The notes under the pieces were generated by a model. The model ran no database searches. It saw nothing but the letters and a program-made list of their open reading frames with translations, and was not told where the DNA came from. From an uncultured Candidatus Saccharibacteria bacterium (GTDB lineage Bacteria > Patescibacteriota > Minisyncoccia > Minisyncoccales > JANBVM01), in the NCBI GenBank assembly GCA_964514375.1, contig CAZEQH010000001.1, positions 17,303-81,302 on the forward strand: 64,000 bases of DNA, read 5' to 3'. Positions 10,554 to 27,074 of the stretch are shown here, in pieces. Every line of letters begins with the position of its first letter. The stretch's first letter is position 1. A program made the position numbers and the translations under genes.

Positions 10554-10603
10554 TTGGCAGGGTGGTCTACGCGACCAGGTTCGAACTTGCCATTTAATAA
10601 AGA

Positions 10604-10954: not shown

Positions 10955-10955
10955 A

Positions 10956-11315: not shown

Positions 11316-11424
11316 ATTATTTAATTATACTCTAAAAATCAAAATTTGAAAAAACTTTTATACAGCTTGATTCTCGCTACCGAGAGCATAGAGTCAAATT
11401 ACTAAAAACCAAATACTAACTACT

Positions 11425-11450
11425 AAAACCCTCCGTTTATGAGGGTTTTC
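11425..11450 (-). terminator. Intrinsic terminator of the tRNA-Lys/tRNA-His unit
   Basis: AAACCCTC-loop-GAGGGTTT. The same stem sequence recurs at 59484-59511. Confidence 0.6.
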
Positions 11451-11452
11451 AT

Positions 11453-11478
11453 GGGCTTGCCCTGAGCGAAGTCGAAGG
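11453..11478 (-). repeat. tRNA 3-prime trailer repeat (CCTTCGAC...GCTCAGGGCAAGCCC type)
   Basis: Minus strand reads CCTTCGACTTCGCTCAGGGCAAGCCC directly after tRNA-His. Related copies at 35254, 45774 and 59334. Confidence 0.6.
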
Positions 11479-11553
11479 GGTGGTCGACGGGAATCGAACC
11501 CGCACATCTCCTCGGCCACAACGAGGCGCTTTGCCAATTAAGCTACGACCACC
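11479..11553 (-). tRNA. tRNA-His (GUG) with G-1, CCA not encoded
   Basis: Acceptor GTGGTCG/CGACCAC preceded by an extra G. Anticodon stem CCTCG/CGAGG with loop TTGTGGC. T-loop TTCGATT. Confidence 0.85.
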
Positions 11554-11707
11554 ATAATTTCAAATCCCAAATCCTAAACTCCAAGCTCCAAATAAATACC
11601 AATAACCAAATTTCTAATTAAGCAAGTCGAAAACTTTGTATTTGAATTCTGATGCTTCGAATTTATTTGGGATTTGGATATTGGGATTTAGAATTTCTCT
11701 CTAAGTG

Positions 11708-11780
11708 TGCCCCCACCAGGACTCGAACCTGGAACCAATTGCTTAAGAGGCAACTGCTCTGCCAATTGAGCTACGGGGGC
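11708..11780 (-). tRNA. tRNA-Lys (CUU), CCA not encoded
   Basis: Acceptor GCCCCCG/TGGGGGC, anticodon stem GTTGC/GCAAT with loop CTCTTAA, T-arm CCAGG-TTCGAGT-CCTGG. Confidence 0.85.
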
Positions 11781-11916
11781 CTGGCGATAATACCTTAATA
11801 TCTTACTATGGAAAAGGGGAAATGTCCATGCCTCTTTATTCATTTTATCACAACCAAAAACCCGGGTCTCCTGCCAGCTGGCGGATCCCGGGCTTTGATG
11901 TGATAGATAATTATTT

Positions 11917-12519
11917 TTACTCCTTGGTTTTAATCACCTGGTCTATAATTCCGTATTCCTTGGCTTCTTCCGGAGACAGATAGAAGTCGCGGTCGGTATC
12001 TTTTTCTACTTTCTTTAAGTTCTGGCCGGTGTGTTTGGCAATTATGTGATTTACCTTGTCTTTAAGCCGGATGATGTGTTTTGCGGCAATTTCAATCTCT
12101 ACGGCCTGTCCTCCCACCCCACTTACGGCTACCTGGTGCAGGAGAATCTGGGCATTGGGCAGGGCAAACCTTTTCCCCTTGGCTCCTGCAGCCAGCAGTA
12201 CGGCAGCTCCCGAAGCAGCAGACCCTACACAAACGGTTGAGACCGGACAGTTTATATATTGAATGGTGTCATAGATGGCTAAGGCCGAGGTCAGCACTCC
12301 ACCCGGTGAGTTAATGTATAACTGGATGTCTTTCTTGGGGTTCTGGGAAGCCAGGAAAAGCATCTGGGCAATAATGGAGTTTGCTATGGGGTCGACAATA
12401 GGCCCTCCCAGGAAAACAATCCTTTCTTTCAGGAGCCGGGAATAAATGTCATACACCCGCCATCCCTGCTGGGTTTTCTCCACGACGTTGGGAATGATGT
12501 TGTTGTTTTTAGGTTTCAT
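11917..12519 (-). CDS. clpP: ATP-dependent Clp protease proteolytic subunit
   Basis: [11 protein letters not shown] (Ser), LLHQ (His), [20 protein letters not shown] (Asp region). 200 aa. Confidence 0.95.
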
Positions 12520-13963: not shown

Positions 13964-14653
13964 TTATGATTTAGTCAAGCACCGGACTACCTTTTTGATT
14001 CTCGGCTCCTTATAGGGTTTGTCGTCGTCGAAGACCAACCTGTTTTTTATTATTTCGGTTTTAAAAATGTGTTTCTTGCTCTTGGCATTCCTCGCCATTA
14101 ATTCGGTAAGAGGACTGAGTCTTTTTAGAAAGATGGGAGCCAGACAAAGGATGCCGAAGGTGCCCACCGGGCTGAATTTATTAAAGTGGGCAGACAGCAC
14201 CAGGAAAAGAATCAAAAGCAGAATAGTGGCTTCGGCGGCATTCCAGGTTAGGGCCATCAGGACGGGCAGGATTAGAGAAAAACCTATTATTTTTGGAGAG
14301 AGAGCCAGGGCCGCTCCCACGAAAGTGCCTATTCCTCTGCCTCCGGCTAATTTCAGGAAGAAGGACCAGTTGTGCCCTACTACCGCAGCCGCTCCGGCCA
14401 GGGCCTGGAGGCTGGGAGGAAGATTGAACCTTTGGGCTATCCTGACGGCTGCATATCCTTTAGCCACGTCCAGTATGCCGGTTGCCACACCTTGCCACTT
14501 GCCTATGTTCTTAAATACATTAGAGCCGGAAGTTTTCCGCCACCCTATCTTCAGGATGTTCTGCTGGGTAGTAAGGCGGGTAATAATGTAGCCGAAGGGG
14601 ATAGAACCCAACAGGTAGGAAAGTACAATTATTGAAAGATTGGTCCAATTCAT
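13964..14653 (-). CDS. PlsY-family acyltransferase paralog (divergent, C-terminally extended)
   Basis: LLGSIPFGYII, TSGSNVFKN, DVAKGY, GHNWSFFLKLAGGRG follow the PlsY motif order with substitutions. 229 aa. Confidence 0.65.
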   Translation of the reverse strand: MNWTNLSIIVLSYLLGSIPFGYIITRLTTQQNILKIGWRKTSGSNVFKNIGKWQGVATGILDVAKGYAAVRIAQRFNLPPSLQALAGAAAVVGHNWSFFLKLAGGRGIGTFVGAALALSPKIIGFSLILPVLMALTWNAAEATILLLILFLVLSAHFNKFSPVGTFGILCLAPIFLKRLSPLTELMARNAKSKKHIFKTEIIKNRLVFDDDKPYKEPRIKKVVRCLTKS

Positions 14654-14657
14654 AAAG

Positions 14658-15245
14658 TTAAAGCTTAAGGGGACTTTTGGGTTCTTCCCGGCGGATAAGA
14701 CGTTTGATATTTTCCCTTAAGGCAAATGAGAGAATGAGAGCTCCCGTTATCCCGAAGGCAAGATATTGGGGAAAGAAAAAGTAGAGAAAGATTGAAAATA
14801 ACCAGGGGAAAAGCAGATTGGCCAGGGCAGTGATTTTTGTGGCGGCGAAGAGGAGAAGCCATACTGCAAATGCCGGAATAAAAAATTTTATTCCGACTAA
14901 TCCCAGGCAAGCTCCCAGAAAAGTAGAACCTCCCTTACCTCCCTTAAACTTGAAAAAAACAGGAAAGATATGTCCGATGGTCGGCACTAGAGCTACCGCC
15001 ATTAATTGCCAATCATTTTCAAGCAGCGGGCGGAACAATAAGACAGGCAGAACTCCCTTTGAAAAATCAAGTACGGCCGCCAGACTGCCCCATTTCCATC
15101 CCGCTGCCCGCGCCACGTTGGTGGCGGTGGCGGACTTGCTCCCTATATTGGTAATGTCGATTCCTCGGTATTTGGCTACGATATGGCCGAAAGATACTGA
15201 ACCGACAAGGTAAGAAAGTACGGATATTGATAAAAAAAGAATCAT
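14658..15245 (-). CDS. plsY: Glycerol-3-phosphate acyltransferase PlsY (acyl-phosphate dependent)
   Basis: YLVGSVSFGHIV, GSKSATATNVAR, DFSKG, GHIFPVFFKFKGGKG. 195 aa, multi-pass. Confidence 0.8.
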   Translation of the reverse strand: MILFLSISVLSYLVGSVSFGHIVAKYRGIDITNIGSKSATATNVARAAGWKWGSLAAVLDFSKGVLPVLLFRPLLENDWQLMAVALVPTIGHIFPVFFKFKGGKGGSTFLGACLGLVGIKFFIPAFAVWLLLFAATKITALANLLFPWLFSIFLYFFFPQYLAFGITGALILSFALRENIKRLIRREEPKSPLKL

Positions 15246-15248
15246 AAT

Positions 15249-16799
15249 CTACAAGGGGATATTGCCGTGTTTCCTGGGGGGTCGGCTTTCCCTTTTGTTA
15301 AGCAGGGACTCCAGTATTTTTATCAAAACCATTCTTGTCTGGGCCGGATTTATTATCTTATCGATTTGGCCGAGCTCAGCCGCTTCATAGGGGTTGAGAA
15401 AGGATTTTTTTAACTCCTCTATTTTTTCTTTTTCCAATTTTCCGGGATTTTTGCTTCTTTCCAGCTCTTTTCTGTAGATAATCTTCACTGCCTGCTCGGG
15501 ACCCATGACGGCAATTTGGGCCGAAGGCCAGGCCAGTACGGTGTCGTATCCTAATTTCCTGGAAGCCAGGGCGATATAGGCGCCGCCGAAAGCCTTTCGC
15601 AGTATAAGGCTTATTTTAGGAACAGATGCCTCCGAAAAAGCATAGAGCACCTTGGCTCCGTGCCTGATGATGCCTCTTGTTTCCTGGTCCACGCCCGGAA
15701 GGTATCCCGGCGTATCTACCAGGTTGATAAGTGGGATATTGAAGGCGTCGCAGAATCTTACAAAACGGGCTATCTTATCCGAGGAATCAATATCCAGGGT
15801 GCCGGCCATGGATTTAGTCTGGTTGGCTACTATGCCCGCTACCATTCCTCCCATTCTGGCTAAACCTACAATGGCGTTGGCGGCAAAATGGGGATGGATT
15901 TCGAAGAAAGAGTTTTTATCCGCTATTTCCGCGATCACTTCTTTCATATCATACCCCTTCTCGTCTTTTTCCGGAACCAGTTCCAGAAGCCGGTAGTTTT
16001 CCTCTTGTTCGAAAAGCTCTGCCAGCAGGCTTCTTTCTCTGGGAGGATTCTCAAGATTGTTCTGAGGAATGTACGAAAGCAGTTTTTTAACAGCTGAAAA
16101 GCAATCTTTTTCCGAATTGAATGAAAAGTGAGCGCATCCGCTTTTGGCGTTATGTACCTCAGCCCCTCCCAAACCCTCAGAAGAAACCTTTTCTCCGGTA
16201 ACTTTTTCTATAACCTGGGGACCCGTAATGTACATCTGCGAGATTCCCCGCACCATGAATACGAAATCGGACAGGCCCGGGGCGTATGAGGCGCCTCCCG
16301 CAGAAGGCCCTGCTATTACGGATATTTGAGGAATAATACCGGAAGCCTTTATCATTTCCCGGAACAGGGAGGCGTAGCCGTCCAAACTGGATATTCCTTC
16401 CTGGATTCTGGCTCCACCAGAATCTATTATGCCGATAACGGGACTGCCCGTTTTTCTAGCTAATCTAATGACCTTGACTATCTTTTTTCCATGCATTTCT
16501 CCGAGCGACCCTCCTATCTTGGAAAAGTCCTGGCTGTATACGCAAACCTGACGGCCGTTAATTTTTCCAAAGCCCGTTATGACCGCATCCCCGGAAACCT
16601 TCTTTTCCTCAAGTCCTAATTTGGTAAACCTGGTTTCAACAAAAGGATCCAGCTCCTCAAAGGTTTCCAGGTCAAGAAGAAGCTCAATCCTTTCCCTGGC
16701 GGTAAGTTTCCCTTTCTGATGCTGCTTCTCGGCCAATTCGGGGTTGTTGAGTCCTTTTTCTTTCTTATTTAATTGTTTAATGTCTTCTTCAAAGCTCAT
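15249..16799 (-). CDS. Acyl-CoA carboxylase carboxyltransferase subunit (PccB/12S type)
   Basis: 516 aa. KLTARERIELLLD, GFGKINGRQVCVYSQDF...GGSLGE, IGIIDSGGARIQEG are typical of fused alpha/beta carboxyltransferases. Confidence 0.9.
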   Translation of the reverse strand: MSFEEDIKQLNKKEKGLNNPELAEKQHQKGKLTARERIELLLDLETFEELDPFVETRFTKLGLEEKKVSGDAVITGFGKINGRQVCVYSQDFSKIGGSLGEMHGKKIVKVIRLARKTGSPVIGIIDSGGARIQEGISSLDGYASLFREMIKASGIIPQISVIAGPSAGGASYAPGLSDFVFMVRGISQMYITGPQVIEKVTGEKVSSEGLGGAEVHNAKSGCAHFSFNSEKDCFSAVKKLLSYIPQNNLENPPRERSLLAELFEQEENYRLLELVPEKDEKGYDMKEVIAEIADKNSFFEIHPHFAANAIVGLARMGGMVAGIVANQTKSMAGTLDIDSSDKIARFVRFCDAFNIPLINLVDTPGYLPGVDQETRGIIRHGAKVLYAFSEASVPKISLILRKAFGGAYIALASRKLGYDTVLAWPSAQIAVMGPEQAVKIIYRKELERSKNPGKLEKEKIEELKKSFLNPYEAAELGQIDKIINPAQTRMVLIKILESLLNKRESRPPRKHGNIPL

Positions 16800-16822
16800 A
16801 TCTTCTTTATTTTCACCCTATG

Positions 16823-17341
16823 TTATTCGCTTATTATTTTCAACTGATGCTTAAGTTCTTTAACTATTTGATTGATAATATCCCTGTTATCCACCTTCCT
16901 CCCAATTTCTATTTTAAGTGAAGTGGCGGTATTTTCCAGTTCCGCGGGGAACTTGCCTATATTGGTATTAAGGCCGATACCCATAATGGAAAATTTTACC
17001 TCAGACCCTATGACGGCTTCCGTAAGGATGCCTGCCACCTTTTTCCGGTTAATGTAGACGTCATTGGGCAGCTTGATAAGAGGTTCTAAATCGAAGTTTT
17101 CCTTGATAACCTTGGCGACCACAAAAGCTGCCAGGATGGTAAGAGTCTGTATGTCTTCCACCGTGCTTTTCGGCAGGATTACGGAAAAATAAAGGCCGCC
17201 TTTCGGGGAAAACCAGAAATCTTTTTTTCTGCCGTGGCCCGCCGTCTGTTCTTCGGCCCAGACAACCAGCCAGGGTTTATGTTTTTTCCCCTTAGCTAAA
17301 ATATTGGTGGAGGAAACTTTTTTATATTTCTCAATTTTCAT
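16823..17341 (-). CDS. birA: Biotin-protein ligase, catalytic domain only
   Basis: STN...EEQTAGHGRKKDFWFSPKGGLYFSV...NDVYINRKKVAGIL. Short (172 aa), without an HTH or a C-terminal domain. Confidence 0.75.
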   Translation of the reverse strand: MKIEKYKKVSSTNILAKGKKHKPWLVVWAEEQTAGHGRKKDFWFSPKGGLYFSVILPKSTVEDIQTLTILAAFVVAKVIKENFDLEPLIKLPNDVYINRKKVAGILTEAVIGSEVKFSIMGIGLNTNIGKFPAELENTATSLKIEIGRKVDNRDIINQIVKELKHQLKIISE

Positions 17342-17343
17342 AA

Positions 17344-17742
17344 TTATTCCATTATAATTAATACGGTTCCTTCCTTCACGTTTTGTTCTTTTTCCACTTT
17401 AATCTTTTTTATCTTTCCTTTGGAATCTGAAACAATTTCATTTTCCATTTTCATGGCAGACAGGAGGATTACCTTCCTGTCCTTTTCTATAGATTCTCCT
17501 TCCGCCACGAAAATTTCAGAAACCGTACCGGAAATGGGAGCTCTTATTTCTTTTTCCCCAAAATTTTTTTTGGGCAGGGAAGTTCCGGCAAGGGAAAGAC
17601 CTTGGCCCTTCTCACCACCTTTCTGCTTAAAGTTAAATTCTTCTCCTCCCACTTTTATTTTAACAGAGTCTGTCCCCTCGGGCTTTATTTCCACTACATA
17701 TTCTTTATTCCTGATATTCAGTTTAAACTTTTTTTCCTTCAT
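17344..17742 (-). CDS. Biotin carboxyl carrier protein
   Basis: C-terminal biotinyl domain with the SAMKMENEI biotinylation motif. 132 aa. Confidence 0.85.
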   Translation of the reverse strand: MKEKKFKLNIRNKEYVVEIKPEGTDSVKIKVGGEEFNFKQKGGEKGQGLSLAGTSLPKKNFGEKEIRAPISGTVSEIFVAEGESIEKDRKVILLSAMKMENEIVSDSKGKIKKIKVEKEQNVKEGTVLIIME

Positions 17743-17747
17743 AATTA

Positions 17748-19292
17748 TTATTTGCGGAACATCCGCAGGCGTTCTGCCATAATCCAGCTGGAAACCTTAC
17801 CCTCGCCCTTGTTCAAAGGGCCGTTTCCGTTTTGTCCGATACTTTTGTAAATCTGGAATATTATATCGGCTAACTCCTTATTGCTTAATTCTTTTTTCTG
17901 GGGGGGCTTTTGAAAACAGGGCTGGCAGGAGAGTTTATCAAGAATTTTGCTTTTCTCAATAAAGTTAGTGGTGAAGTCACCTCGGAGAAAAGCGTCATTT
18001 TCTACCAGAAGGTTAAAAAAGGGAATGGTGGTGGGTACTCCTTCTATCACCATTTCTCCCAGAGCCCTCTTTAGTCGGGCTATGGCCTCTTCTCTGGTTT
18101 TCCCATGTGAGATTACTTTGGCCAGCAGAGAGTCAAAGTAAGGATAAATTTCCTGTTCCTCATGCAGGAAGGTATGCAGAAATATCCCCTGGCCTCCGGG
18201 AGGGATATACTTCTGGATTACGCCCGGGGTCGGCATGAAGTTTTTCTGGGTATCTTCAGCATTTATTCTAGCCTCCACGGCCCAGCCATTGAAGTTGATG
18301 TCACCCTGGGAAAAAGAGGTTTCCTGGCCCTGGGCTATTCGTATCTGCTGTTCCACAATATCCACTCCAGTGATGGCTTCGGTGACCGGGTGTTCCACCT
18401 GGAGTCTGGGATTGGCTTCCAGAAAATAGAAGTTCTTGTGTTCATCCATTAAGAATTCAATAGTTCCTGCTCCATTATATTTAAGTTTTGCGGAAAATTT
18501 GACCGCCAGGTTTCTTATATTGTTTCTTTCTTTTTCGTTGAGAAAAGGGGAAGGGGCTTCTTCAAATAGTTTCTGGAATCTTCTCTGAATGGTGCACTCC
18601 CTTTCTCCCAGATGAACAACTTTTTTCCGGTCTCCCAGCACCTGGACTTCGATGTGACGGGCATTAGGAAGGTGTTTTTCCAGGAAGAAGTCTGTTTCAG
18701 AAAAAGCAGTGGCAATCTGCCTCTGGATACCGTCCGAAATATTAAAGAGGTCTCCAAAATCAATTTTTCCGTCAATTACCCTTATCCCTATGCCTCCTCC
18801 TCCCTTTTGGGCCTTGAGTATAAAAGGAGGTTTTATCCGGTAAACCCATTTTACCAGGTCTCTTTTTGTCTTAATCGGTCCGTTACTTGCGGGAAGGGTG
18901 GGTATTCCGATTCTTCGGGCAATTCTTTTGGCTTCAACCTTATCTTCCAGCTTCCTTAAAGTATTGAAATGGGGACCTATAAAACGAACCCTGTGCTTTT
19001 CGCAGAGCCTGGCAAATCTCCAATTTTCCGACAAGAAACCGTAACCGGGATGGATGGCATCGGCCCTGGAAGCCTTGGCTATCCTTATGATTTTTTTTAT
19101 ATCAAGGTACCCGGCTGCTCCTTCCTTTTCCAGGAAATAGTATTCATCGGCCAACCTGGTTTCCAGAAAATTATGCTCCTGTCCCACTGTAGGGCAGAGA
19201 GCTACCGTCTTGATATTCATTTCCCGGCAGGTTCTTATGATCCGCAAGGCCACTTCTCCGCGGTTGGCTACAAGGATTTTTTTAATCTCCAT
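17748..19292 (-). CDS. accC: Biotin carboxylase (ATP-grasp) with a ~60-aa C-terminal extension
   Basis: KILVANRGEVALRIIRTCREM, ATP-grasp core, EANPRLQVEHPVTE. 514 aa. Confidence 0.9.
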   Translation of the reverse strand: MEIKKILVANRGEVALRIIRTCREMNIKTVALCPTVGQEHNFLETRLADEYYFLEKEGAAGYLDIKKIIRIAKASRADAIHPGYGFLSENWRFARLCEKHRVRFIGPHFNTLRKLEDKVEAKRIARRIGIPTLPASNGPIKTKRDLVKWVYRIKPPFILKAQKGGGGIGIRVIDGKIDFGDLFNISDGIQRQIATAFSETDFFLEKHLPNARHIEVQVLGDRKKVVHLGERECTIQRRFQKLFEEAPSPFLNEKERNNIRNLAVKFSAKLKYNGAGTIEFLMDEHKNFYFLEANPRLQVEHPVTEAITGVDIVEQQIRIAQGQETSFSQGDINFNGWAVEARINAEDTQKNFMPTPGVIQKYIPPGGQGIFLHTFLHEEQEIYPYFDSLLAKVISHGKTREEAIARLKRALGEMVIEGVPTTIPFFNLLVENDAFLRGDFTTNFIEKSKILDKLSCQPCFQKPPQKKELSNKELADIIFQIYKSIGQNGNGPLNKGEGKVSSWIMAERLRMFRK

Positions 19293-19911
19293 AAATGTAT
19301 GGTTTTTTTGAAAGGATTGATATTTCTCTCATTATAATGTCGGTAGTCTTTCTTAAAAGTTTGTAATATCGGCCGTTATCTTCACTTATTCCTTCCTCTT
19401 CTGAAAACCTTAAAGGTTTTCCTATGGATACTATCCTTTTGGCAGAATACGGCACCCTGCTGAGACCTATGGTCAAAACGGGGCAGCCGCTTCTCAGGGC
19501 TAATTCCGCCACGCCGGTTTTTCCTCTCAGCAATCCTCTCTTTCTGTTGGTATCTCCTTCCGGGAAGAGCACGACAATTTCCCCTTTTTCCAGACAGCTT
19601 ATCATTTTTTCCATAATGGTTTTTCTGTCACCCGCCTTTCTGTTAATGATTATAGGCTCTGAAAAATAATAAAGAAGGCCTGATTGGACAGCAGTCATAA
19701 TGGTATCCAGAGCGCCCACGAAACGCAAGCTTCTCAGCTTTTCTTTCAGTACGTTGCCGATAAACCAGTAATCTAAACTGTCTATGTGGTTGGAGGCCAC
19801 AATGAAGCTTCCCTGCTGGGGTATATTCTCCCTACCCTCTATCCTGTCCGTAAAAAGGTTGGCGGCAGGCAGCGTGAGAAGCCTGCAGAACCAAACAAAA
19901 AGTGTTTTCAT
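19282..19911 (-). CDS. plsC: 1-acyl-sn-glycerol-3-phosphate acyltransferase family protein
   Basis: Acyltransferase motifs NHIDSLD and FPEGDT. 11-nt overlap with accC, 4-nt overlap with the upstream plsC. Confidence 0.8.
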   Translation of the reverse strand: MKTLFVWFCRLLTLPAANLFTDRIEGRENIPQQGSFIVASNHIDSLDYWFIGNVLKEKLRSLRFVGALDTIMTAVQSGLLYYFSEPIIINRKAGDRKTIMEKMISCLEKGEIVVLFPEGDTNRKRGLLRGKTGVAELALRSGCPVLTIGLSRVPYSAKRIVSIGKPLRFSEEEGISEDNGRYYKLLRKTTDIIMREISILSKKPYIYGD

Positions 19912-20576
19912 TTTTCTTCCATCTGAGACTTTAATAAGGCTATTTCCCTCATTACCTTGTCCGTTATCTTGATAAGAAAATCCCTTTTTTCTATATCGTT
20001 CAATTCTTCTTTCTTTCTTCCCTCCAGCTCTTTTTCAAAGTAGATGGGCTTTCCAATGTTTATTTTAATGATTCTTTTAATTTTCAGTTTTCCGCCCGGG
20101 GGCAGCAGTTTGAAGGTGCCGCTGATGGCGGCCGGAAGAATAGGGGTTCCTGTCTCAAAAAAAATTTTCGCTACTCCCCATTTTCCTCTCCCCAATTTTC
20201 CGGTCCTGGTCCTGGTGCCTTCGGGATAAATAATCAAACTGTCGCCTTTCTTTGCAAATTCTATCGCCTCTTCTATCACTTTTCTTTTCGAGCCTTCATC
20301 TTTTCTGTTGAGGCGAATAACGCCTGCTATAAAGTAGACAATGTATAATATCAGCTTGGCCAGGCCTTCGTAGTTATCGGTCTGTCCTATAAAATGGAAT
20401 CTTCGGGGTACGCAGATATAGCCGTTGGCTATTTCGTCCAGATGGCTTTGGTGGTTGGTGGCCAGTATAAAATTCCTGTCAGGCAAATTACCCCATCCTT
20501 TTACCTGTCGGATAAATAATCTCTTGACTATGGGTGCTAAAAATATTTTACAGAACCAGGAAACAGCTCTGTTCAT
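19908..20576 (-). CDS. plsC: 1-acyl-sn-glycerol-3-phosphate acyltransferase
   Basis: NHQSHLDE and YPEGTRTRTG motifs. Start trimmed to MNRAVSWF (ATG 20576), which gives an ATGA overlap with the upstream stop. The track ORF extends to 20675 inside the FabK gene. Confidence 0.85.
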   Translation of the reverse strand: MNRAVSWFCKIFLAPIVKRLFIRQVKGWGNLPDRNFILATNHQSHLDEIANGYICVPRRFHFIGQTDNYEGLAKLILYIVYFIAGVIRLNRKDEGSKRKVIEEAIEFAKKGDSLIIYPEGTRTRTGKLGRGKWGVAKIFFETGTPILPAAISGTFKLLPPGGKLKIKRIIKINIGKPIYFEKELEGRKKEELNDIEKRDFLIKITDKVMREIALLKSQMEEK

Positions 20577-21511
20577 AGTTCTTCCGCCTTTTCCCGAATA
20601 ATTCTCCGGGAATCTTCCATTATATCTTTTATTATTTCGGCGCAGGTTTTGATGTCTGAGATTCCGCCGGCACATAATCCGCAGAGCAGGGGTGCATGCT
20701 CTATGTTGCCGCTCTCTATCTTGGAGCTAGAGAATCTGTCAGCCCTTATCTCTTCCGGAAAGGCATTCTGCTCTTCCATTTTCTTGATTTTCTCGGTCAG
20801 TTTATTTTCGATGGCTCTTACCGGATATCCGGTAAACCTGGCTGCCACAATAATGTTTTCTTCCGTCGCTTCCAGGATGGCCTTCTTATAGTTATCATGG
20901 GCCAAACATTCTTTGCTGGCGAGGAACCTGGTGCCCAGCTGGACTCCATCTGCCCCCAGCATGAAAGCTGCGGCAGCTGTCCTGCCGTTGTATATCCCGC
21001 CTGCCGCAATAAGGGGTATATTGAGGTATTCGGCTGCCTGGGGGACAAGGACCATAGTTGTGACTTTACCAATATGGCCTCCTGATTCCAGCCCCTCAAC
21101 TACCACTGCATCAGCCCCGTTATCCTCCATTTTTTTAGCTAACCGTGACAATCCTACTACCGGAATTGCTTTGATTCCGGCCTTTTTTAAATAGGGAAAA
21201 AGAGGCAGAGGGTTGCCTCCACCGGTAAATACGATGGGAACCTTCTCCTTTATGACCACCTCGGTAAGCTCCTGTATTTTAGGATTTCTCAACAGGAGAT
21301 TGGCACCGAAAGGTTTGTCGGTAAGTTTTTTTGTCTTCTGAATTTCCTCTTCCAGCCAGGAAGCGGGCAGAAACCCTGCTCCTATTACTCCCAATCCGCC
21401 GGCATTGGAAACCGCTGAAACCAAGGCAGAATCAGATATTCCCGCCATACCTCCCTGAATAATGGGATACTTTATTTCGAGAAGCTCGGTCAGTTTATTT
21501 TTTTTGGGCAT
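20573..21511 (-). CDS. NMO/FabK-type FMN-dependent enoyl reductase
   Basis: YPIIQGGMAGISDSALVSAVSNAGGLGVIG and GADGVQLGTRFLASKEC, the nitronate monooxygenase/FabK TIM-barrel pattern. 312 aa. Confidence 0.75.
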   Translation of the reverse strand: MPKKNKLTELLEIKYPIIQGGMAGISDSALVSAVSNAGGLGVIGAGFLPASWLEEEIQKTKKLTDKPFGANLLLRNPKIQELTEVVIKEKVPIVFTGGGNPLPLFPYLKKAGIKAIPVVGLSRLAKKMEDNGADAVVVEGLESGGHIGKVTTMVLVPQAAEYLNIPLIAAGGIYNGRTAAAAFMLGADGVQLGTRFLASKECLAHDNYKKAILEATEENIIVAARFTGYPVRAIENKLTEKIKKMEEQNAFPEEIRADRFSSSKIESGNIEHAPLLCGLCAGGISDIKTCAEIIKDIMEDSRRIIREKAEEL

Positions 21512-21522
21512 GTTGGTATGTA

Positions 21523-23019
21523 TTAGTCGTTAACTATTAAAGGGTCTTTTTTTAGGATGCTGTTGGCCTCTTCAACAAGTTCTGTCAGCAGTTCCTTTAC
21601 GGTAACTATCTTTTCTATTCTCCAGAAATTGGAACCTGCAAAGACCAGTCCGTTTTCTATGTCTCCCTTACGGGCGTTTTCCAGCGCTTCTAGAATACAG
21701 TAACTCTTATCGCATACTATGCCTATGCATCCCTGGCATTTTTTAGGGTCGGGCTTGGGGGCTTTGCCTGCCAGGATTTTATCGACGAGAGGACTGCGGA
21801 TGGCTCTGCCCGGCAGGCCTACGGGCGAATGAATGATTACTCCGTCTTCTTTACTCGCTTTCAGGTAAGCTTCTTTGAAGTTTATGTGTGCGTCGCATTC
21901 CTTAGTGGCTACAAAACGGGTAGCCATCTGCACTCCTTTGGCTCCCGCCCTGAGCATCTCTACTATGTCTTTTCCGTCAAAGATGCCGCCGGCCGCTATT
22001 ACCGGTATTCTGACCTCATTCACCACTTCCTTCACAATATCTATGGTCTTGCGGAAGGGATGTCCTTCTGGAAATCCGAGATGACCTCCGGCATCCTTTC
22101 CTTCTATCACTACAGCAGCAGCTCCCATATCCTCTCCCTTTTTGGCTACTTTAAGCGACGAGGCCATGGAGAATATGGGCACATTGAATTTTTCTCCGAG
22201 CTTGAAAATGTCGTTTCTAAATCCGGCGCCCTGGATTACCAGATTAATGCCTTCTTCCATGGCCGCCGTTACAAGTTCGGTGAAACGGCTGACGACGCCC
22301 ATAATATTGATACCTATCATTCCTTCTGGGCCGGCGATTTCCCTGGCTTTTCTGATTTCTGCCTTCACTTCTTCAGGATATCTTATGCCGGAAACAGCTA
22401 CTATCCCCACAGCTCCATTCTTGGCAACGTTTCCTGCCAGATTGTGCAGGGCCACCCTTACCGCCATGCCTCCCTGGATGATGGGGATTTTAGCAAAGAC
22501 GCTTCCTATCTTTAAGGGAGGTAATTCTTTCTTGGCAATGGGCTTTCCCTGTTTCGCTTCCTCTTTTTTTTCTGCTAATTTGTCTTTATCCACCACGGCC
22601 ACTACGAATCTTACTTCGCATTTCCTGTCTCCCTTGACCAGGACCTCCCCGACGAAGTTGGCTATCTTCTGACCATAAAACCCTAGGAGTTTTACCTTGT
22701 ACTTTATTTTATCTCCCGGGAATACAGGCTTGAAAAATAAAGCGCTCCTAACCTGATAGGCCAGGAGATGTTTGTCCTTATGGCTTTTCCCCATTTTCTG
22801 CCTTAGGAGGACGGTAGCGGTCTGAGCCATTCCTTCCACCATCAATACGCCGGGCATAATGGGAAAGTCCACGAAATGTCCTTTAAAATAGAGGTCCTGC
22901 GGCGAAGTGTTTTTATAACCTATAATGGTATTTCCTTTAATACTCTCTATCTCTTCCACCCAGAGGAAAGGGTCATCATAGGGAATGATTTTCTTAATCT
23001 GTTCTTTATTAAACATCAT
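21523..23019 (-). CDS. Fusion protein: FabZ-like hot-dog dehydratase (N) + NMO/FabK-type reductase (C)
   Basis: N-terminal FKGHFVDFPIMPGVLMVEGMAQ. Linker KDKLAEKKEEAKQGKP. C-terminal PIIQGGMAVRV...GAKGVQMATRFVATKEC. 498 aa in one uninterrupted frame. Confidence 0.8.
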   Translation of the reverse strand: MMFNKEQIKKIIPYDDPFLWVEEIESIKGNTIIGYKNTSPQDLYFKGHFVDFPIMPGVLMVEGMAQTATVLLRQKMGKSHKDKHLLAYQVRSALFFKPVFPGDKIKYKVKLLGFYGQKIANFVGEVLVKGDRKCEVRFVVAVVDKDKLAEKKEEAKQGKPIAKKELPPLKIGSVFAKIPIIQGGMAVRVALHNLAGNVAKNGAVGIVAVSGIRYPEEVKAEIRKAREIAGPEGMIGINIMGVVSRFTELVTAAMEEGINLVIQGAGFRNDIFKLGEKFNVPIFSMASSLKVAKKGEDMGAAAVVIEGKDAGGHLGFPEGHPFRKTIDIVKEVVNEVRIPVIAAGGIFDGKDIVEMLRAGAKGVQMATRFVATKECDAHINFKEAYLKASKEDGVIIHSPVGLPGRAIRSPLVDKILAGKAPKPDPKKCQGCIGIVCDKSYCILEALENARKGDIENGLVFAGSNFWRIEKIVTVKELLTELVEEANSILKKDPLIVND

Positions 23020-23756
23020 ATTGATAACCCTCCGTCGATTTTGATTATGGTTCCCGTGATAAATCCGGCTTTTTTCGAGGACAGGAAGGCCACCAGGTGG
23101 GCAACCTCCTCGGGTTTACCGAATCTGCCCAGAGCGGTTAGTTTTTTAACCTGTATTTTGAAATCTTCCGGAAGTCTTTCCGTTAATGAGGTTTCTATGA
23201 AACCGGGCGCCAGCGCATTAACGGTAACCTCAAACCTTCCTACTTCCTTTGCCAGAGCCTTAGTAAAACCTGCAATACCTGCTTTGGCGGCTGCGTAGTT
23301 AGTCTGGCCGAAGTTGCCCCGGAGCCCTACTAGGGAGGACATGTTAATTATCCTGCCTTTGCTCTCTATTATCATGGGCAGGGCGGCTTTGGTGCAATTG
23401 AAGACTCCTGTGAGATCAATATCTATTACGTTCTGCCATTCCTCCCGGCTCATCTTAGCTAGGGTTCTGTCTTTGCATATACCTGCGTTATTAACAAGAA
23501 TATCCAATTTCCCGAACTCTTTTTTTACCGTTTGCATCATGACTTCTACTTCATCCAGGCTGGATACGTCGGCCGTAAAATAAGCAGCCTTCGTTCCCTT
23601 CCCTTCTAAATCACCTTTTAGATTTTTAAGACTCTCTTCCTGTGCCTTAATGTCATTTAAAGCGATTAAGGCGCCTTGGGAAGCAAGTTCCAGGGCAATA
23701 ACCCTGCCTATTCCTTGAGAGGAGCCGGTAATAAGAACTACTTTTTCTTTAAGCAT
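23016..23756 (-). CDS. fabG: 3-oxoacyl reductase (SDR)
   Basis: TGSSQGIG, NNAGI, S...YAAAKAG catalytic pattern. 246 aa. 4-nt overlap with the downstream fusion gene. Confidence 0.9.
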   Translation of the reverse strand: MLKEKVVLITGSSQGIGRVIALELASQGALIALNDIKAQEESLKNLKGDLEGKGTKAAYFTADVSSLDEVEVMMQTVKKEFGKLDILVNNAGICKDRTLAKMSREEWQNVIDIDLTGVFNCTKAALPMIIESKGRIINMSSLVGLRGNFGQTNYAAAKAGIAGFTKALAKEVGRFEVTVNALAPGFIETSLTERLPEDFKIQVKKLTALGRFGKPEEVAHLVAFLSSKKAGFITGTIIKIDGGLSI

Positions 23757-23763
23757 AGAATAT

Positions 23764-24372
23764 TTAAATTAGTTTATTGGCGATTTCGGAAACCTTTATT
23801 TTTGATAAATAAATTAATCCTCCCAGAATGCTTTTCAGACAGTCTCCGAACAGAAAGGGATAAAGCCCCAAAGACAATACCTTGGGGGTCCCTACATACT
23901 CTGTTAACCATAAAAGACCCGGTATGTAAATGACCATGGAGCTCGCGGCCATGGCCGCAATTGCTGAGAGAAAATTCTTACTTTTTATTTTTTCTGTCAG
24001 ATATCCTGCAGTAAAAGCGGCTGCCGGAAAGCCGAGAATATATCCGAAGGTCGGACTCAGAATGTAAGCCAGACCTCCTCCGTTTGAAAACCAGGGAAGA
24101 CCCGACAGGCCTCCTGCCAGATAGATAAGCTGGGCTGCTGCGCCCTTCTTCTTTCCCAGTAAAGCTCCGCTTAATATAACGGCTAGGGTCTGGAGGGTAA
24201 AAGGGACGGGACCCAGCCCCGCTTTTATTCCCGCCGATATGCCCGTCAGAACGGAAAAAACGAAGACTAACGTAATATCCTTCAGTGCCTGCAAAAATTT
24301 CATCTTGGCAGGGGAAAAGGTAAAATCCTGCAGAGTTGACCTTGAGGGATTAGTAGAATTGTTCGATGTCAT
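23764..24372 (-). CDS. bioY: Biotin transporter BioY
   Basis: PFTLQTLAVILSGALLG...GLPWFSNGGG...SPTFGYILGF. An internal ATG (MKFLQ, 24303) is an alternative start. Confidence 0.85.
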   Translation of the reverse strand: MTSNNSTNPSRSTLQDFTFSPAKMKFLQALKDITLVFVFSVLTGISAGIKAGLGPVPFTLQTLAVILSGALLGKKKGAAAQLIYLAGGLSGLPWFSNGGGLAYILSPTFGYILGFPAAAFTAGYLTEKIKSKNFLSAIAAMAASSMVIYIPGLLWLTEYVGTPKVLSLGLYPFLFGDCLKSILGGLIYLSKIKVSEIANKLI

Positions 24373-25417
24373 ATTGGACTTCTTTTATCTCCCTTCCTGT
24401 TATGGGAATATCTTGAATTTTAATATTTTTGAGATACTCTGGCAAATCCTTCTGGAATGTGATTTCCGCAAAAACCCTTTCTAAATTGAAGGCGTTGAAG
24501 CTAGCCAATACAAGGCCTAAAGAGGCCGTGTAACCCGTTGATTTTCTAATGGATATTCCTTCGGCCACTGTAAGAAAAGAAGGCAGGATTTTCTGAAGAC
24601 AGGAAACTATTTTTTGATATTCGTTGAGATATTTGGCGGAGAGAAACGAATCTTTTTTAATCAGCTTGAGGGTATTATCGAGAGCCCCTCTTACCTTTAA
24701 TTTGCTGTCTAGTTTAAGAATAGGGAGATTAATCACGACATCGCTGCTGAATACTTCTTCTGATATTCCAAGAGAGATACCGTCAATCTCTTTCTCGAGA
24801 AAATTAGTTTGGGCGATATCTAGCGGGGATAGTCCGTTTTGCTGACATATTTCCAGTAGGCGGGATTTGGCGGCGGAGGCTTCTATTGGTATTTCTCCAA
24901 AGGCTTGGGCGGCCACCTTAATGTTATTTTTGGAAGCTCCCTGGTTCAGCAGATATTTAACGGCTGCGTTTAAAAATTGAGGGCTAGTATTTTCCCTGAA
25001 ATATGGATGCTGGGCGGAAATTAGAGTAGGAAGCACTAAAATCTTTGAATCCCTATCCAGGTTTAACCCCCCGGGCCTTAAGAGCGAGACGGTCCGTTCT
25101 ACCGCTTCCAGAATATCGTATTTTGCCCGCCATATAGATACCGTATCTTCACCCGGCAAGGATTTGATTTCAAAGTCGTCTCCTATGCCGTATTCCTTTA
25201 TTGATTTGAATGTCCAGTGATTTTTATTTTCATCCTCCAACACCAAGACAAAATAGGGTACCTGCGGATGGAGAATGGTGGGTATGCTGACCTTGGAAAC
25301 ACCAATGACTTTAATCCTTTCGCCTTCGTTTATCCTTTCCAATTTCCGGAAGCAGTCGGGACATTTTCCGACAGGATACTGCCATGTTTTTTTACACTGC
25401 GGACATTGGTAAAACAT
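24350..25417 (-). CDS. Fusion: DUF35-like zinc ribbon/OB fold (N) + DUF362-like domain (C)
   Basis: N-terminal CPQC...GKCPDC followed by an OB-like segment, as in thiolase-associated DUF35. The C-terminal ~235 aa (VINLPILKLDSKLKVRGALDNTLK) resemble DUF362. Confidence 0.55.
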   Translation of the reverse strand: MFYQCPQCKKTWQYPVGKCPDCFRKLERINEGERIKVIGVSKVSIPTILHPQVPYFVLVLEDENKNHWTFKSIKEYGIGDDFEIKSLPGEDTVSIWRAKYDILEAVERTVSLLRPGGLNLDRDSKILVLPTLISAQHPYFRENTSPQFLNAAVKYLLNQGASKNNIKVAAQAFGEIPIEASAAKSRLLEICQQNGLSPLDIAQTNFLEKEIDGISLGISEEVFSSDVVINLPILKLDSKLKVRGALDNTLKLIKKDSFLSAKYLNEYQKIVSCLQKILPSFLTVAEGISIRKSTGYTASLGLVLASFNAFNLERVFAEITFQKDLPEYLKNIKIQDIPITGREIKEVQYDIEQFY

Positions 25418-25465
25418 ATTTGTGTATTTTTAAAATGTTAGCAGAAATGATAGACTATATATTAC

Positions 25466-25978
25466 ATGAAAACACTTTATTTGCCAGCGGAGATTAGGGA
25501 GGAACTCAGGAAACCCTGGGGTATCTCCATCTTCGGCACTGAAAAAGAAATAAGGGAAAAATACAGCCAGATTATAAAGGAGAAAAAATACAGCCAGGTC
25601 ATCACGGTAGGAGACAAGTGCTCTCTCAGCCTTACCTCTGATATTAAAATATTTGATGGGAAGATAAACCGGAAAGGCATAGAGAGCATCATTCCTTTTG
25701 AGTTGAAGGTTTTTAATCCTGCAGGCACTATCCAGGAAGAGGCGTGGCAGACTGTCGAGGAGGCTATTCGGGGAAAAAAGAACGTTTTTGTGAAAGGAGA
25801 GGAAGACCTTCTTGTAATTCCCGCGGTCTTGCTGGCGCAGAAGAATACGGTCGTGGTGTACGGATTGCGCGGCAGGGGAATATGTCTGGTGGAGGTTTCC
25901 CCTAAAATCAAACAGGATTTCCAAAACATAATAAGCAGATTCCAGGCTAGACGGTCCTCTGAAGAATGTGAACCGTAA
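25466..25978 (+). CDS. DUF359 family protein (archaeal-type GTP-dependent dephospho-CoA kinase family)
   Basis: VITVGD, IFDGKINRK, VKGEEDLLVIPAVL, VVYGLRGRG match my recollection of DUF359 conserved blocks. The 3-prime end overlaps the convergent thiolase by 32 nt. Confidence 0.65.
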   Translation: MKTLYLPAEIREELRKPWGISIFGTEKEIREKYSQIIKEKKYSQVITVGDKCSLSLTSDIKIFDGKINRKGIESIIPFELKVFNPAGTIQEEAWQTVEEAIRGKKNVFVKGEEDLLVIPAVLLAQKNTVVVYGLRGRGICLVEVSPKIKQDFQNIISRFQARRSSEECEP

Positions 25979-27074
25979 CACTGCCTCCAGTCCCTCCGAT
26001 ATTGTGGCAGAGTCCCGTTCTTGGAACGGGATTTATTTGTCTTTCTTTTTCACATCTGCCCCTTATCTGCTTTGTAATCTCGTAAATCTGGGCCAGCCCT
26101 GTGACCGATATGGGATGTCCCTTGGCTTTTAGGCCCCCGGAAGTATTAACAGGAAGCGCACCGTCCCGGTTGATTTTTCCGGAACGGATAAGCGCGGCCC
26201 CCTTACCTTCAGCGCATAATCCCAGGTCTTCATAAGAAAATAATTCCACAGACGTGAAGGCATCGTGAACCTCAGCTATTTCAATATTCTCAGGCTTCAG
26301 CCCGGCCTGTTGGAAGGCCTGATGGGCGGCCTTTCCCGTAGCCAGAAAGTGATGCAGGTCTTTCCGGCCGAAGGTAAGCATGTGGTCTGTGGCGAATCCC
26401 GAGCCGATAATCTTGACGTCTGTTTTATCACGGGTGAGAACCGCCGCCGCTCCTCCGTTTACCGACAGGGAACAATCCATAAGACGGAGTGGGGAAGCTA
26501 CCACGGGAGAATTTTTAATTTTATCCAGAGATACGGGGCGCTGGTAAAAATAGGCCTTAGGATTAAGGGCCGCATTCTGGTGGTTCTTAAAGGCGACGAG
26601 GGCCAGATCATCCATAGAGGCCCCGTATTTTTGCATATACTGCTGCCATACCAAAGCATTCTGGACCGGAAATAAAAGCCCTTCCGTCTGTTCTATCATC
26701 CTTTCGGAAGCGGATAGTATCCAGTCAACGGTTACTTCACTTCTGTTGTCAACGAGCTTCTCCCCGCTTACTACCAGTACGTTGTTAAAACCTAAGCGGT
26801 TGGCCGTCCAGACAGCCACTCCTCCCCCTGCGCATACGGAAGGCAGCTCTATGATAGGGACATTGGTCTTGAATATATCGGATACCACTGATACCTTATG
26901 GGTTTGGTGTTCTCCTCCGGCTGCACTGGATACGGCCGAGATTACGATAGCATCCATGTCGGATATGCCCATGGAGGCATCCTCCAAGGCTTCCAAGGCA
27001 GCCTCAAAAGCCTGTTTCCACCAGGGTTTTTGGGAATAATCAAACTTTGTCATTCCTACTCCTTTGATATACAT
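25947..27074 (-). CDS. Thiolase-superfamily condensing enzyme, archaeal/SCP-x-like type
   Basis: 375 aa. Nucleophile region ELPSVCAGGGVA. C-terminal NTSGGLKAKGHPISVTGL and CHNIGGTGGS. No KAS-type motifs. Confidence 0.8.
   Translation of the reverse strand: MYIKGVGMTKFDYSQKPWWKQAFEAALEALEDASMGISDMDAIVISAVSSAAGGEHQTHKVSVVSDIFKTNVPIIELPSVCAGGGVAVWTANRLGFNNVLVVSGEKLVDNRSEVTVDWILSASERMIEQTEGLLFPVQNALVWQQYMQKYGASMDDLALVAFKNHQNAALNPKAYFYQRPVSLDKIKNSPVVASPLRLMDCSLSVNGGAAAVLTRDKTDVKIIGSGFATDHMLTFGRKDLHHFLATGKAAHQAFQQAGLKPENIEIAEVHDAFTSVELFSYEDLGLCAEGKGAALIRSGKINRDGALPVNTSGGLKAKGHPISVTGLAQIYEITKQIRGRCEKERQINPVPRTGLCHNIGGTGGSVTVHILQRTV

Follow-up and report, generated by a model that had tools for sequence, protein, structure and literature searches.

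How a bacterium of the candidate phyla radiation (CPR) comes by the acyl chains of its membrane is the question raised by a locus in the 64,000-nt stretch of contig CAZEQH010000001.1 analyzed here (the window; all positions follow its numbering), in which genes for a biotin-dependent acyl-CoA carboxylase, for reductive enzymes of fatty acid synthesis and for phospholipid acyltransferases follow one another on the minus strand. CPR bacteria (Patescibacteria) are the textbook case of cells unable to make membrane lipids. According to a survey of 675 CPR genomes, some Nealsonbacteria have near-complete gene sets for type II fatty acid synthesis (FAS II) and phospholipid formation, the same genomes are without AcpS, FabD, PlsB and PlsX, and a route independent of acyl carrier protein (ACP) was raised there, with the source of acyl-phosphate left open (Probst et al. 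2020; PMC7242380). Our answer, held with slightly more confidence than doubt, is that the locus would be a self-contained, coenzyme A (CoA)-based and ACP-independent module for fatty acid synthesis and phospholipid assembly in a bacterium of the Nealsonbacteria/Paceibacteria type that has a tiny genome, with a thiolase as putative condensing enzyme. The genes that would form its core are, from the upstream end:

25947-27074, minus strand: archaeal/SCP-x-type thiolase, 375 aa (Pfam Thiolase_C_1; NCBIfam PRK06064, 319 bits)
24350-25417, minus strand: fusion of a DUF35-like domain (residues ~1-90; zinc ribbon and OB fold) with a DUF362/LarA-like domain
23764-24372, minus strand: BioY biotin transporter component (Pfam BioY, 1.2e-39)
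23016-23756, minus strand: FabG-type 3-ketoacyl thioester reductase (NCBIfam 3oxo_ACP_reduc, 292 bits; cut-off 298)
21523-23019, minus strand: FabZ (residues 1-146) fused to a FabX-like flavin mononucleotide (FMN)/Fe-S NMO domain (residues ~165-498), 498 aa (Pfam FabA, NMO)
20573-21511, minus strand: FabK-type FMN enoyl reductase (NCBIfam enACPred_II, 362 bits; cut-off 453; Pfam NMO, 3.5e-72)
19908-20576, minus strand: PlsC-type lysophosphatidate acyltransferase 1 (Pfam Acyltransferase; HX4D motif HQSHLD)
19282-19911, minus strand: PlsC-type acyltransferase 2 (Pfam Acyltransferase; HX4D motif HIDSLD)
17748-19292, minus strand: biotin carboxylase (BC), ATP-grasp (Pfam Biotin_carb_N, CPSase_L_D2, Biotin_carb_C; NCBIfam AccC, ~530-550 bits)
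17344-17742, minus strand: biotin carboxyl carrier protein (BCCP; Pfam Biotin_lipoyl; AMKM motif with the biotinyl-Lys)
16823-17341, minus strand: biotin-protein ligase (BirA), catalytic domain only (NCBIfam birA_ligase, 139 bits; cut-off 83)
15249-16799, minus strand: acyl-CoA carboxylase carboxyltransferase (CT), PccB/AccD5 type (Pfam Carboxyl_trans, full length, 2.6e-179)
14658-15245, minus strand: PlsY acyl-phosphate:glycerol-3-phosphate acyltransferase (NCBIfam TIGR00023, 144 bits; cut-off 137)
13964-14653, minus strand: divergent PlsY-like acyltransferase (Pfam G3P_acyltransf, 7.9e-30)

An earlier note on this DNA had described 12 consecutive minus-strand genes between 13964 and 24372, and the table of open reading frames (ORFs) bears this out as an unbroken series; Pfam and NCBIfam agree with the identities and order it gave from BioY to the PlsY-like gene. 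Its junctions also hold, with 4-nt overlaps of the ATGA type at 23016/23019, 20573/20576 and 19908/19911, an 11-nt overlap at 19282/19292, and remaining gaps of 2-23 nt where up to about 25 nt had been claimed. The start of the first PlsC gene must lie at 20576 (222 aa), as assumed there, and the catalytic motifs are preserved: both PlsC proteins have HX4D, BCCP has AMKM and FabZ has His/Glu. Two of its statements had to be revised. The operon had been taken to start at bioY; instead, the gene at 24350-25417 overlaps the start of bioY by 23 nt, and we propose that it is the first gene of the coupled operon and that its product is the partner or scaffold of the thiolase. No condensing enzyme had been seen; a thiolase-superfamily gene lies ~0.5 kb upstream of the DUF35::DUF362 gene on the same strand. 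A scan for promoters and terminators returned counts near the shuffled expectation and gives nothing on operon boundaries, and an Rfam scan of the window returned tRNAs only.

The arrangement is conserved. A locus scan (one genome per species) yielded 18 CPR loci of Paceibacteria/Nealsonbacteria, two of them from complete Nealsonbacteria genomes (CP179887.1, CP179889.1), for which the common order is thiolase-[DUF359]-DUF35::DUF362-[BioY]-FabG-FabZ::NMO-FabK-PlsC-BC-BCCP-BirA-CT-PlsY, with fatty acid kinase (Fak) genes frequently upstream of the cluster. The FabZ::NMO fusion has >120 protein-cluster homologues (70-89% identity), the named ones belonging to Nealsonbacteria, Paceibacterota or Parcubacteria, and these names sustain the CPR-type origin supposed by the earlier note. 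Thiolase homologues are 72-81% identical across >120 CPR protein clusters, and those of the DUF35::DUF362 protein are 52-74% identical. In 12 loci the thiolase is syntenic and adjoins the DUF35-like gene; it abuts the DUF35::DUF362 gene in lineages without an antisense DUF359 gene, and in a distant lineage (L016) it lies 35 nt upstream of that gene, the zinc ribbon being kept. A literature search on the two complete-genome accessions found no publication, and the paper on Nealsonbacteria DGGOD1a reports no lipid pathway.

The machinery on which ACP-dependent synthesis relies was sought at two scales. In the 64 kb, where the earlier note had seen no ACP, AcpS, FabD or FabH/FabF, searches by Pfam, tblastn and an ACP hidden Markov model (HMM) agree with it; across all called genes of the window, Pfam found no ACP, FabD, AcpS, ketoacyl synthase (KAS) or PlsX, including ketoacyl-synt and ACP_syn_III domains. 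The window and the 18 CPR loci together (371 kb, 19 genomes) were then compared with 16 non-CPR loci retrieved with the fusion, which served as controls, with tblastn (queries from Escherichia coli and Bacillus subtilis, E < 1) and with an ACP model that jackhmmer had iterated over the controls (E ≤ 50). Neither method found ACP (PP-binding), AcpS, FabD, FabH, FabF or PlsX in the 371 kb. The controls were positive, with acpP <300 nt from the FabX-like gene in 13 of the 16 loci, FabD at 7e-40 to 4e-95, PlsX at 2e-77 to 2e-86, and KAS strongly detected. The FabX-like gene (X) of Veillonella, Peptococcaceae and Margulisiibacteriota stands in the order plsX-fabH-fabK-fabD-fabG-acpP-X-fabF.

Some relatives carry a 325-333-aa gene inside the cluster that was considered as a FabH or FabD and rejected, being an ornithine cyclodeaminase/mu-crystallin protein (L007, 8850-9851; L016, 8974-9954; L004, 2317-3294). 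It either follows the fusion or separates FabG from FabZ::FabX, and is absent from the window.

The FabG sequences carry a site-specific signal. E. coli FabG, as Zhang et al. reportedly found in 2003, docks ACP via R129 and R172. Position 172 is Arg in E. coli and in all 15 control sequences; among 19 CPR sequences it is Phe, Leu or Ser in 18 and Lys in one, the window FabG having Phe there and retaining its Ser/Tyr/Lys triad. Position 129 is Lys or Gln in 18 of the 19, and the basic patch at 129-136 is eroded. The loss of Arg172 supports CoA substrates. A global loss of Lys/Arg in CPR FabG and FabK was considered as well and given up (retention of 0.65-0.67 is not below that of other residue classes), so that the site-specific result alone is used. 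The earlier note had left two options side by side. A non-canonical, possibly ACP-independent synthesis is the one we favor, because ACP, FabD, KAS and PlsX are missing from the window and the 18 loci, because the published survey points the same way, and because FabG has lost Arg172; the other, a route for scavenged chains, would be true in part, as a parallel input, because a FakA::DegV fusion and a second DegV/FakB protein flank the cluster.

The thiolase is the candidate for the condensation step. Its best match in the PDB is 7yvy, followed by 6esq_A (171 bits), BbsB and PhlC, and the last three (6esq, 7pxp, 5m3k) all operate with DUF35 subunits. The nucleophile Cys (SVC[AGS]GGG) and the GHP His (KAKGHPIS) are present in 13 of 13 CPR thiolases, and NIGG is kept. 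The HDCF motif of SCP-2 thiolases, with its acid/base Cys (PMC12329534), is replaced by HDAF in the window protein and all 12 orthologues, an exchange of that Cys for Ala. What is left is a Cys-His-His site that would fit decarboxylative condensation with malonyl-CoA. The Cys-His-His arrangement is that of KAS I/II. Thiolase relatives of ~500 aa (P0261, P0288, P0296, P0301) were examined as a source of a DUF35 domain and rejected, as their OB-like tail has no zinc ribbon, the nucleophile Cys is lost and they belong to a different system; they may represent a thiolase/DUF35 variant that is fused and non-catalytic.

The partner protein was assigned by fold and motif. Pfam detected DUF362 alone on the whole protein. 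Ahead of that domain, Cys5, Cys8, Cys19 and Cys22 form a CxxC...CxxC ribbon that is invariant in 101 homologues and is followed by a beta-rich domain, and several homologues are labelled "uncharacterized OB-fold protein" by JGI. An AlphaFold2 model built from the 101 homologues (pLDDT 89.9, pTM 0.89) replaced a poor earlier model from 32 sequences (pLDDT 57). Foldseek against the PDB matched its C-terminus to LarA-type racemases (7s91, E 9e-9) and its N-terminal ~85-107 residues to essentially every solved DUF35 subunit at a probability of 1.0, among them BbsA (7pxp_A), MucABC (9vbt_L), PhlB (5m3k_B and 9skh), ChsH2-DUF35 (6ok1_B), Shy-DUF35 (9myr), Sulfolobus DUF35 (3irb_B) and, with 24% identity, the DUF35 protein of the Methanothermococcus thiolase/HMG-CoA synthase complex (6esq_G). 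On the strength of this model we consider the N-terminal domain to be DUF35-like.

Downstream of the condensation, the fab genes would complete the cycle, and here the earlier account needed one correction. It had listed a FabZ::NMO fusion followed by an NMO/FabK gene; the fusion and the stand-alone FabK both stand, and the fused NMO domain is FabX-like, not FabK-like. Its best PDB match is Helicobacter pylori FabX (7e1q), at 181 bits against ~126 bits for FabK, so that the fused domain is not a second FabK; the stand-alone FabK remains at 20573-21511. FabX, a dehydrogenase-isomerase with FMN and [4Fe-4S], produces cis-3-decenoyl-ACP in the anaerobic route to unsaturated fatty acids, with cluster ligands C300, C304, C308 and C320 and catalytic residue His182 (PMC8626469). 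The CPR domain is 39% identical to FabX over 256 residues, keeps the equivalents of H182 and of the FMN contacts N99 and E175, and carries four conserved Cys in the corresponding subdomain (motif CQGCIGIVCDKSYC), three of which align with C304, C308 and C320 while the fourth is displaced (spacing CxxCx4Cx4C). R164 is absent and alpha7 shortened, likewise in the Veillonella-type homologues, which use ACP. To the stand-alone homologues of Veillonella, Peptococcaceae and Margulisiibacteriota the domain is ~50% identical. In Fusobacterium, overexpression of a FabX homologue partly offsets inhibition of FabK (PMC11091888). We infer that the fused domain is either an isomerase for an unsaturated branch or an Fe-S-dependent enoyl reductase. 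Among anaerobes, Veillonella and others have the FabX-like gene between acpP and fabF, alongside FabK (L019-L033, ~4980-12300), where it is a candidate for the route of these anaerobes to unsaturated fatty acids.

The extender unit would come from the carboxylase, whose set is complete (BC, BCCP with MKM, and a two-domain carboxyltransferase) and which, with its own biotin transporter and ligase, has its place in the operon between plsC and plsY in each of the 18 loci. The carboxyltransferase matches PDB entries 1vrg, 1x0u, 7w5u and 1xnw best, the Thermotoga maritima and Sulfolobus tokodaii enzymes and PccB being nearest. In its GGAYIAL motif, the Ile aligns with position 422 of Streptomyces coelicolor PccB (entry 1xnw, D422I). 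Diacovich et al. are said to have found in 2004 that PccB position 422 controls acceptance of acetyl-CoA, Asp422 making the enzyme propionyl-selective. Ile at this position appears permissive for acetyl-CoA, and is not proof of specificity. The earlier note had offered the family of the carboxylase as a test of its proposal; the enzyme is indeed of PccB/AccD5 type, and because it bears an acetyl-CoA-permissive Ile, family membership does not discriminate. Malonyl-CoA-driven decarboxylative condensation seems probable because the thiolase is without its acid/base Cys and the carboxylase is a fixed part of the operon.

Beside the core lie further genes that would bear on the supply of acyl-phosphate, on head groups and on CoA:

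27088-28872, minus strand: FakA::DegV fusion, kinase subunit plus FakB-like domain (Pfam Dak2, FakA-like_M, DegV)
31478-32362, minus strand: DegV/FakB-type fatty-acid-binding protein (Pfam DegV, 1.4e-48; NCBIfam DegV, FakB1)
29647-30207, minus strand: CarS-like CDP-(archaeol/diacylglycerol) synthase (Pfam CarS-like, 6e-34; NCBIfam PRK04032)
30902-31498, plus strand: CDP-alcohol phosphatidyltransferase for the head group (Pfam CDP-OH_P_transf; NCBIfam archin_ph_syn, 6.3e-38)
25466-25978, plus strand: DUF359, archaeal GTP-dependent dephospho-CoA kinase-like (Pfam DUF359, 2.4e-27)

The FakA::DegV gene lies 13 nt upstream of the thiolase gene, matches YloV/FakA_VfrB and DegV in NCBIfam, and is kept beside the cluster in L001-L003, L007, L011, L016 and L018. 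PlsY probably receives its acyl-phosphate from this protein, and with a second DegV/FakB protein also flanking the cluster, the presence of PlsY without PlsX would be explained. Of the two PlsY proteins, the divergent form is the copy kept in most relatives (L002-L005, L007, L009, L011). A sequence from thioester through free acid and Fak to PlsY without PlsX has a precedent in suppressor mutants of Staphylococcus aureus (PMC13245860).

These flanking genes also invite the reading that the locus serves scavenging and remodelling only, host fatty acids being elongated or given a cis double bond through FabZ::FabX with no de novo synthesis. CPR bacteria are generally thought to take up host lipids (PMC7242380), and FabX backtracks on preformed acyl chains (PMC8626469). 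Fak, however, yields acyl-phosphate and not a thioester, the loci show neither an acyl-CoA synthetase nor a transacylase of the PlsX type by which scavenged chains might be attached to CoA, and a full condensation-reduction cycle with its carboxylase exceeds what remodelling needs. Nealsonbacteria are, moreover, associated with Methanothrix (PMC13293708), and because archaea offer no fatty acids, such an association fits CoA-based synthesis, as circumstantial support, and speaks against reliance on scavenging. We regard remodelling alone as very unlikely. Still further from probable, to the point of being barely credible, is a non-lipid product, the thiolase-FabG-FabZ-FabK cycle then being a redox sink or part of a fermentation of a butyrate-like or polyhydroxyalkanoate-like kind. 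A thiolase, an acetoacetyl-CoA-reductase-like short-chain dehydrogenase/reductase (SDR), a dehydratase and an enoyl reductase do resemble reverse beta-oxidation, and the window FabG also scores on acetoacetyl-CoA reductase models in NCBIfam, but these genes form a translationally coupled series with two PlsC, two PlsY, the carboxylase and Fak, genes of CDP-lipid metabolism adjoin, and the FabZ, FabK and FabX types are biosynthetic.

The CarS-like gene, kept beside the cluster in L001-L003 and L006, would activate phosphatidate. The CDP-alcohol phosphatidyltransferase resembles archaetidylinositol-phosphate/PIP synthases, with archaetidylinositol-phosphate synthase giving the best score, and a PHP-domain (phosphatase-like) gene lies near these two (29647-31498). 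Together with the archaeal-type thiolase and DUF359, the archaeal-looking head-group genes make the lipid locus, judged by sequence similarity, a mosaic of bacterial and archaeal parts. DUF359 lies antisense between the thiolase and DUF35::DUF362 genes, in the same position as in L001-L003, L005, L007 and L011; the kinase role predicted for it is the last step of CoA synthesis (NCBIfam deph_CoA_kin_Thcocales, 8.5e-22, under the cut-off), and a CoA-synthesis gene embedded here would fit CoA as carrier, as circumstantial evidence. A minus-strand ORF at 25430-25981 was not accepted as a gene; the real one is DUF359 on the plus strand. The 3' end of DUF359 overlaps that of the thiolase gene by 32 nt, the start codons of DUF359 and DUF35::DUF362 are 48 nt apart, and a hairpin with a T-run lies at 26010-26034 (plus strand) inside the thiolase coding region.

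Taken together, these parts suggest the following course. BioY and BirA would supply and attach biotin, with which BC, BCCP and the carboxyltransferase would turn acetyl-CoA into malonyl-CoA. The thiolase, held by the DUF35-like domain of DUF35::DUF362, would carry out the Claisen condensation on CoA thioesters, a reaction that is probably decarboxylative with malonyl-CoA as extender. FabG would reduce the 3-ketoacyl-CoA, the FabZ domain would dehydrate the product and FabK would reduce the enoyl-CoA, while the FabX-like domain might divert trans-2 intermediates to cis-3 ones for anaerobic unsaturated fatty acids or act as a second enoyl reductase. The two PlsC enzymes would take acyl-CoA; the PlsY proteins would take acyl-phosphate made by FakA::FakB and the second FakB from free fatty acids, scavenged or released; and the CarS-like and CDP-alcohol transferase enzymes would finish the phospholipids. 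The most specific form of this proposal is that the thiolase, with a KAS-like Cys-His-His site in place of the acid/base Cys, condenses malonyl-CoA decarboxylatively on a DUF35::LarA-like scaffold while FabG, FabZ::FabX and FabK work on CoA, in a chimeric archaeal/bacterial pathway; in that full form we hold it tentatively, as possible and somewhat doubtful.

Several observations weigh against the CoA-based module. Of the source genome only the 64-kb window was seen, and ~21 kb of each relative. FabG (292 bits), the FabZ domain (97-101 bits) and FabK (362 bits) obtain their best NCBIfam scores, each slightly under the cut-off, on equivalogs of the ACP-dependent enzymes, whose usual substrates are acyl-ACP. 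Pfam DUF35 models do not match the isolated N-terminal 95 residues of the DUF35::DUF362 protein, which drew generic zinc ribbons only (E ≥ 0.007), and a profile search of PDB sequences with this domain was marginal (6esq_E, E 0.81), which is why the assignment rests on fold and motif and not on HMMs. The ACP-docking residues of FabX (K152, R160, R164, T130) were dropped as a test of CoA against ACP, since they are equally lost in Veillonella-type homologues beside acpP and do not discriminate. Nothing that would connect acyl-CoA with acyl-phosphate, whether thioesterase, acyl-CoA synthetase or phosphotransacylase, was seen in the loci. HDAF occurs in 53 of 150 thiolase-family representatives (HDCF in 62) and in 7yvy, deposited as an acetyl-CoA acetyltransferase, on which a literature search found no publication; HDAF was accordingly dropped as proof of decarboxylative chemistry and, being common in the family and present in 7yvy, is a weak clue only. 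Finally, the characterized Sulfolobus ketothiolase (KT)/DUF35 pathway makes no use of malonyl-CoA (Schmerling et al. 2024, bioRxiv 10.1101/2024.07.05.601840).

The first two of these points would suit a conventional ACP-dependent FAS II dispersed over several loci, in which acpP, acpS, fabD and fabH/fabF would lie at other places in the genome and thiolase and DUF35 would have an unrelated role such as acetoacetyl-CoA metabolism; horizontal transfer of acpP into some Patescibacteria has also been reported (PMC12455944). Yet nothing of the kind was found in 371 kb from 19 genomes, whereas 13 of 16 controls have acpP next to the FabX-like gene; AcpS, FabD and PlsX were not found among Nealsonbacteria in the survey of 675 genomes (PMC7242380); the docking Arg172 of FabG is lost; and thiolase and DUF35 partner match the fab genes themselves in conservation and synteny. 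A split FAS II therefore strikes us as quite unlikely.

The last two points bear on the chemistry of condensation. A CoA-based but non-decarboxylative pathway of the Sulfolobus kind would join acyl-CoA to acetyl-CoA, the downstream reductions pulling the reaction, and would leave the carboxylase to propionyl-CoA or to another use of malonyl-CoA. The sole characterized KT/DUF35 fatty acid system works with acetyl-CoA, and for one KT the use of malonyl-CoA was disproved; the best PDB names of the carboxyltransferase are propionyl-CoA carboxylases, and HDAF thiolases are widespread. Set against this, the carboxylase lies with the biotin transporter and ligase inside the operon in 18 of 18 loci, nothing else in view would consume (methyl)malonyl-CoA, the residue at the decisive carboxyltransferase position is the acetyl-CoA-permissive Ile, and the acid/base Cys that non-decarboxylative enolate formation calls for is absent in all CPR orthologues. 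We think the non-decarboxylative alternative unlikely, if still worth serious attention, and continue to prefer a CoA-based module in which the condensation is probably decarboxylative.

Elsewhere in the window, a PAP2-family phosphatase gene (8155-8715, minus strand) may encode a lipid phosphatase, and a weak ApbA/ketopantoate-reductase-like gene (46040-47044, plus strand) is possibly another gene of the CoA pathway. Five paralogous ORFs of ~200 aa (5521-6120, 6175-6795, 7553-8167, 9343-9960 on the minus strand, 39833-40438 on the plus strand) share the C-terminal motif C..C..GD.YHEF.L.W, their sole family match being a weak V4R domain (E 4.6e-6, under the cut-off). ORFs resembling type IV secretion system (T4SS) pilins (35351-36367, 57772-58113, 58204-58701, 58754-59164), a large ORF similar to P-loop ATPases (37343-39802) and a 513-aa ORF very rich in Cys (56176-57717) cluster in two regions (35351-39802 and 56176-59164) and are typical CPR surface machinery. 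ARAGORN predicted 20 tRNA genes in the 64 kb, 19 of them confirmed by Rfam, including a tRNA-Ile with anticodon UAU at 51645-51719; several apparent ORFs at ~41.6-43.4 kb are translations of tRNA genes.

If the proposed reading is true, ACP-free synthesis by a cluster that is conserved and under strong selection (70-90% identity over >120 protein clusters) would change the view of a whole clade held to be unable to make its membrane lipids. It would explain how relatives living on archaea without fatty acids obtain acyl chains, and so how ester lipids can be formed without a fatty-acid-bearing host; it would provide the first bacterial counterpart of archaeal CoA-based fatty acid synthesis, with a carboxylase-driven step in addition; and it would bear on the "lipid divide" and on the evolution of condensing enzymes from thiolases. 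The question left since 2020 would receive a concrete answer, namely that FakA::FakB can supply acyl-phosphate to PlsY.

The idea of an ACP-independent route in Nealsonbacteria is not new, having been put forward as speculation by Probst et al. 2020 (ISME J, PMC7242380), whose available text describes the same near-complete FAS II with PlsY and PlsC and the same lack of AcpS, FabD, PlsX and PlsB. In that available text, supplement terms included, we found no thiolase/DUF35 pair, DUF362 fusion, FabX-like domain, Fak or operon structure, and no published description of the thiolase/DUF35 mechanism, of Fak as acyl-phosphate source or of the FabX-like fusion was found in the searchable literature. 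Individual parts do have known relatives. The thiolase and the DUF35 fold match the thiolase/HMG-CoA synthase/DUF35 complex of Methanothermococcus thermolithotrophicus (6esq/6et9), whereas no HMG-CoA synthase occurs in the window or the related loci, and 6esq has HDCF where the CPR protein has HDAF. With H. pylori FabX (7e1q) the fused domain has in common the NMO TIM barrel, the catalytic His, the FMN contacts and a C-terminal four-Cys subdomain; unlike FabX, it is fused to FabZ and lacks R164, and its Cys are spaced CxxCx4Cx4C instead of Cx3Cx3Cx11C. The FakAB-PlsY-PlsC route for exogenous fatty acids in Firmicutes is likewise represented, FakA, DegV/FakB, PlsY and PlsC being present and adjacent, but the CPR FakA is fused to DegV, PlsX is missing, and PlsY and PlsC are each duplicated.

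Two systems are comparable as wholes. In the FAS II of the Veillonella type (L019-L033), FabG, FabK and the FabX-like protein are homologous to those of the CPR cluster (43-52% identity) and the genes are mutually adjacent. The CPR cluster, in contrast, has thiolase/DUF35, Fak and the carboxylase in place of acpP, fabD, fabH, fabF and plsX, its FabZ is fused to the FabX-like domain, and its FabG has lost Arg172; within the 371 kb examined it holds FabG, FabZ and an enoyl reductase and fails the defining tests of ACP-dependent FAS II. The closest functional analogue is the fatty acid synthesis complex of Sulfolobus acidocaldarius, in which KT Saci_1121/DUF35 Saci_1120, a FabG-like acetoacetyl-CoA reductase, a MaoC dehydratase and an enoyl-CoA reductase from the family of medium-chain dehydrogenases/reductases (MDR) make fatty acids on CoA (Schmerling et al. 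2024, bioRxiv 10.1101/2024.07.05.601840). The CPR cluster differs in having a FabZ-type and not a MaoC dehydratase, an FMN-dependent FabK-type and not an MDR reductase, a DUF35 domain fused to DUF362/LarA-like and a FabZ fused to a FabX-like domain, a thiolase without the HDCF Cys, and, in a bacterial host, a full biotin carboxylase system inside the operon that is joined to PlsC and PlsY. CoA thioesters are the presumed carrier in both, each in an organism apparently lacking ACP machinery, and in both an SCP-x/archaeal-type thiolase stands beside a DUF35-type gene and is accompanied by a ketoreductase of the FabG family of SDRs.

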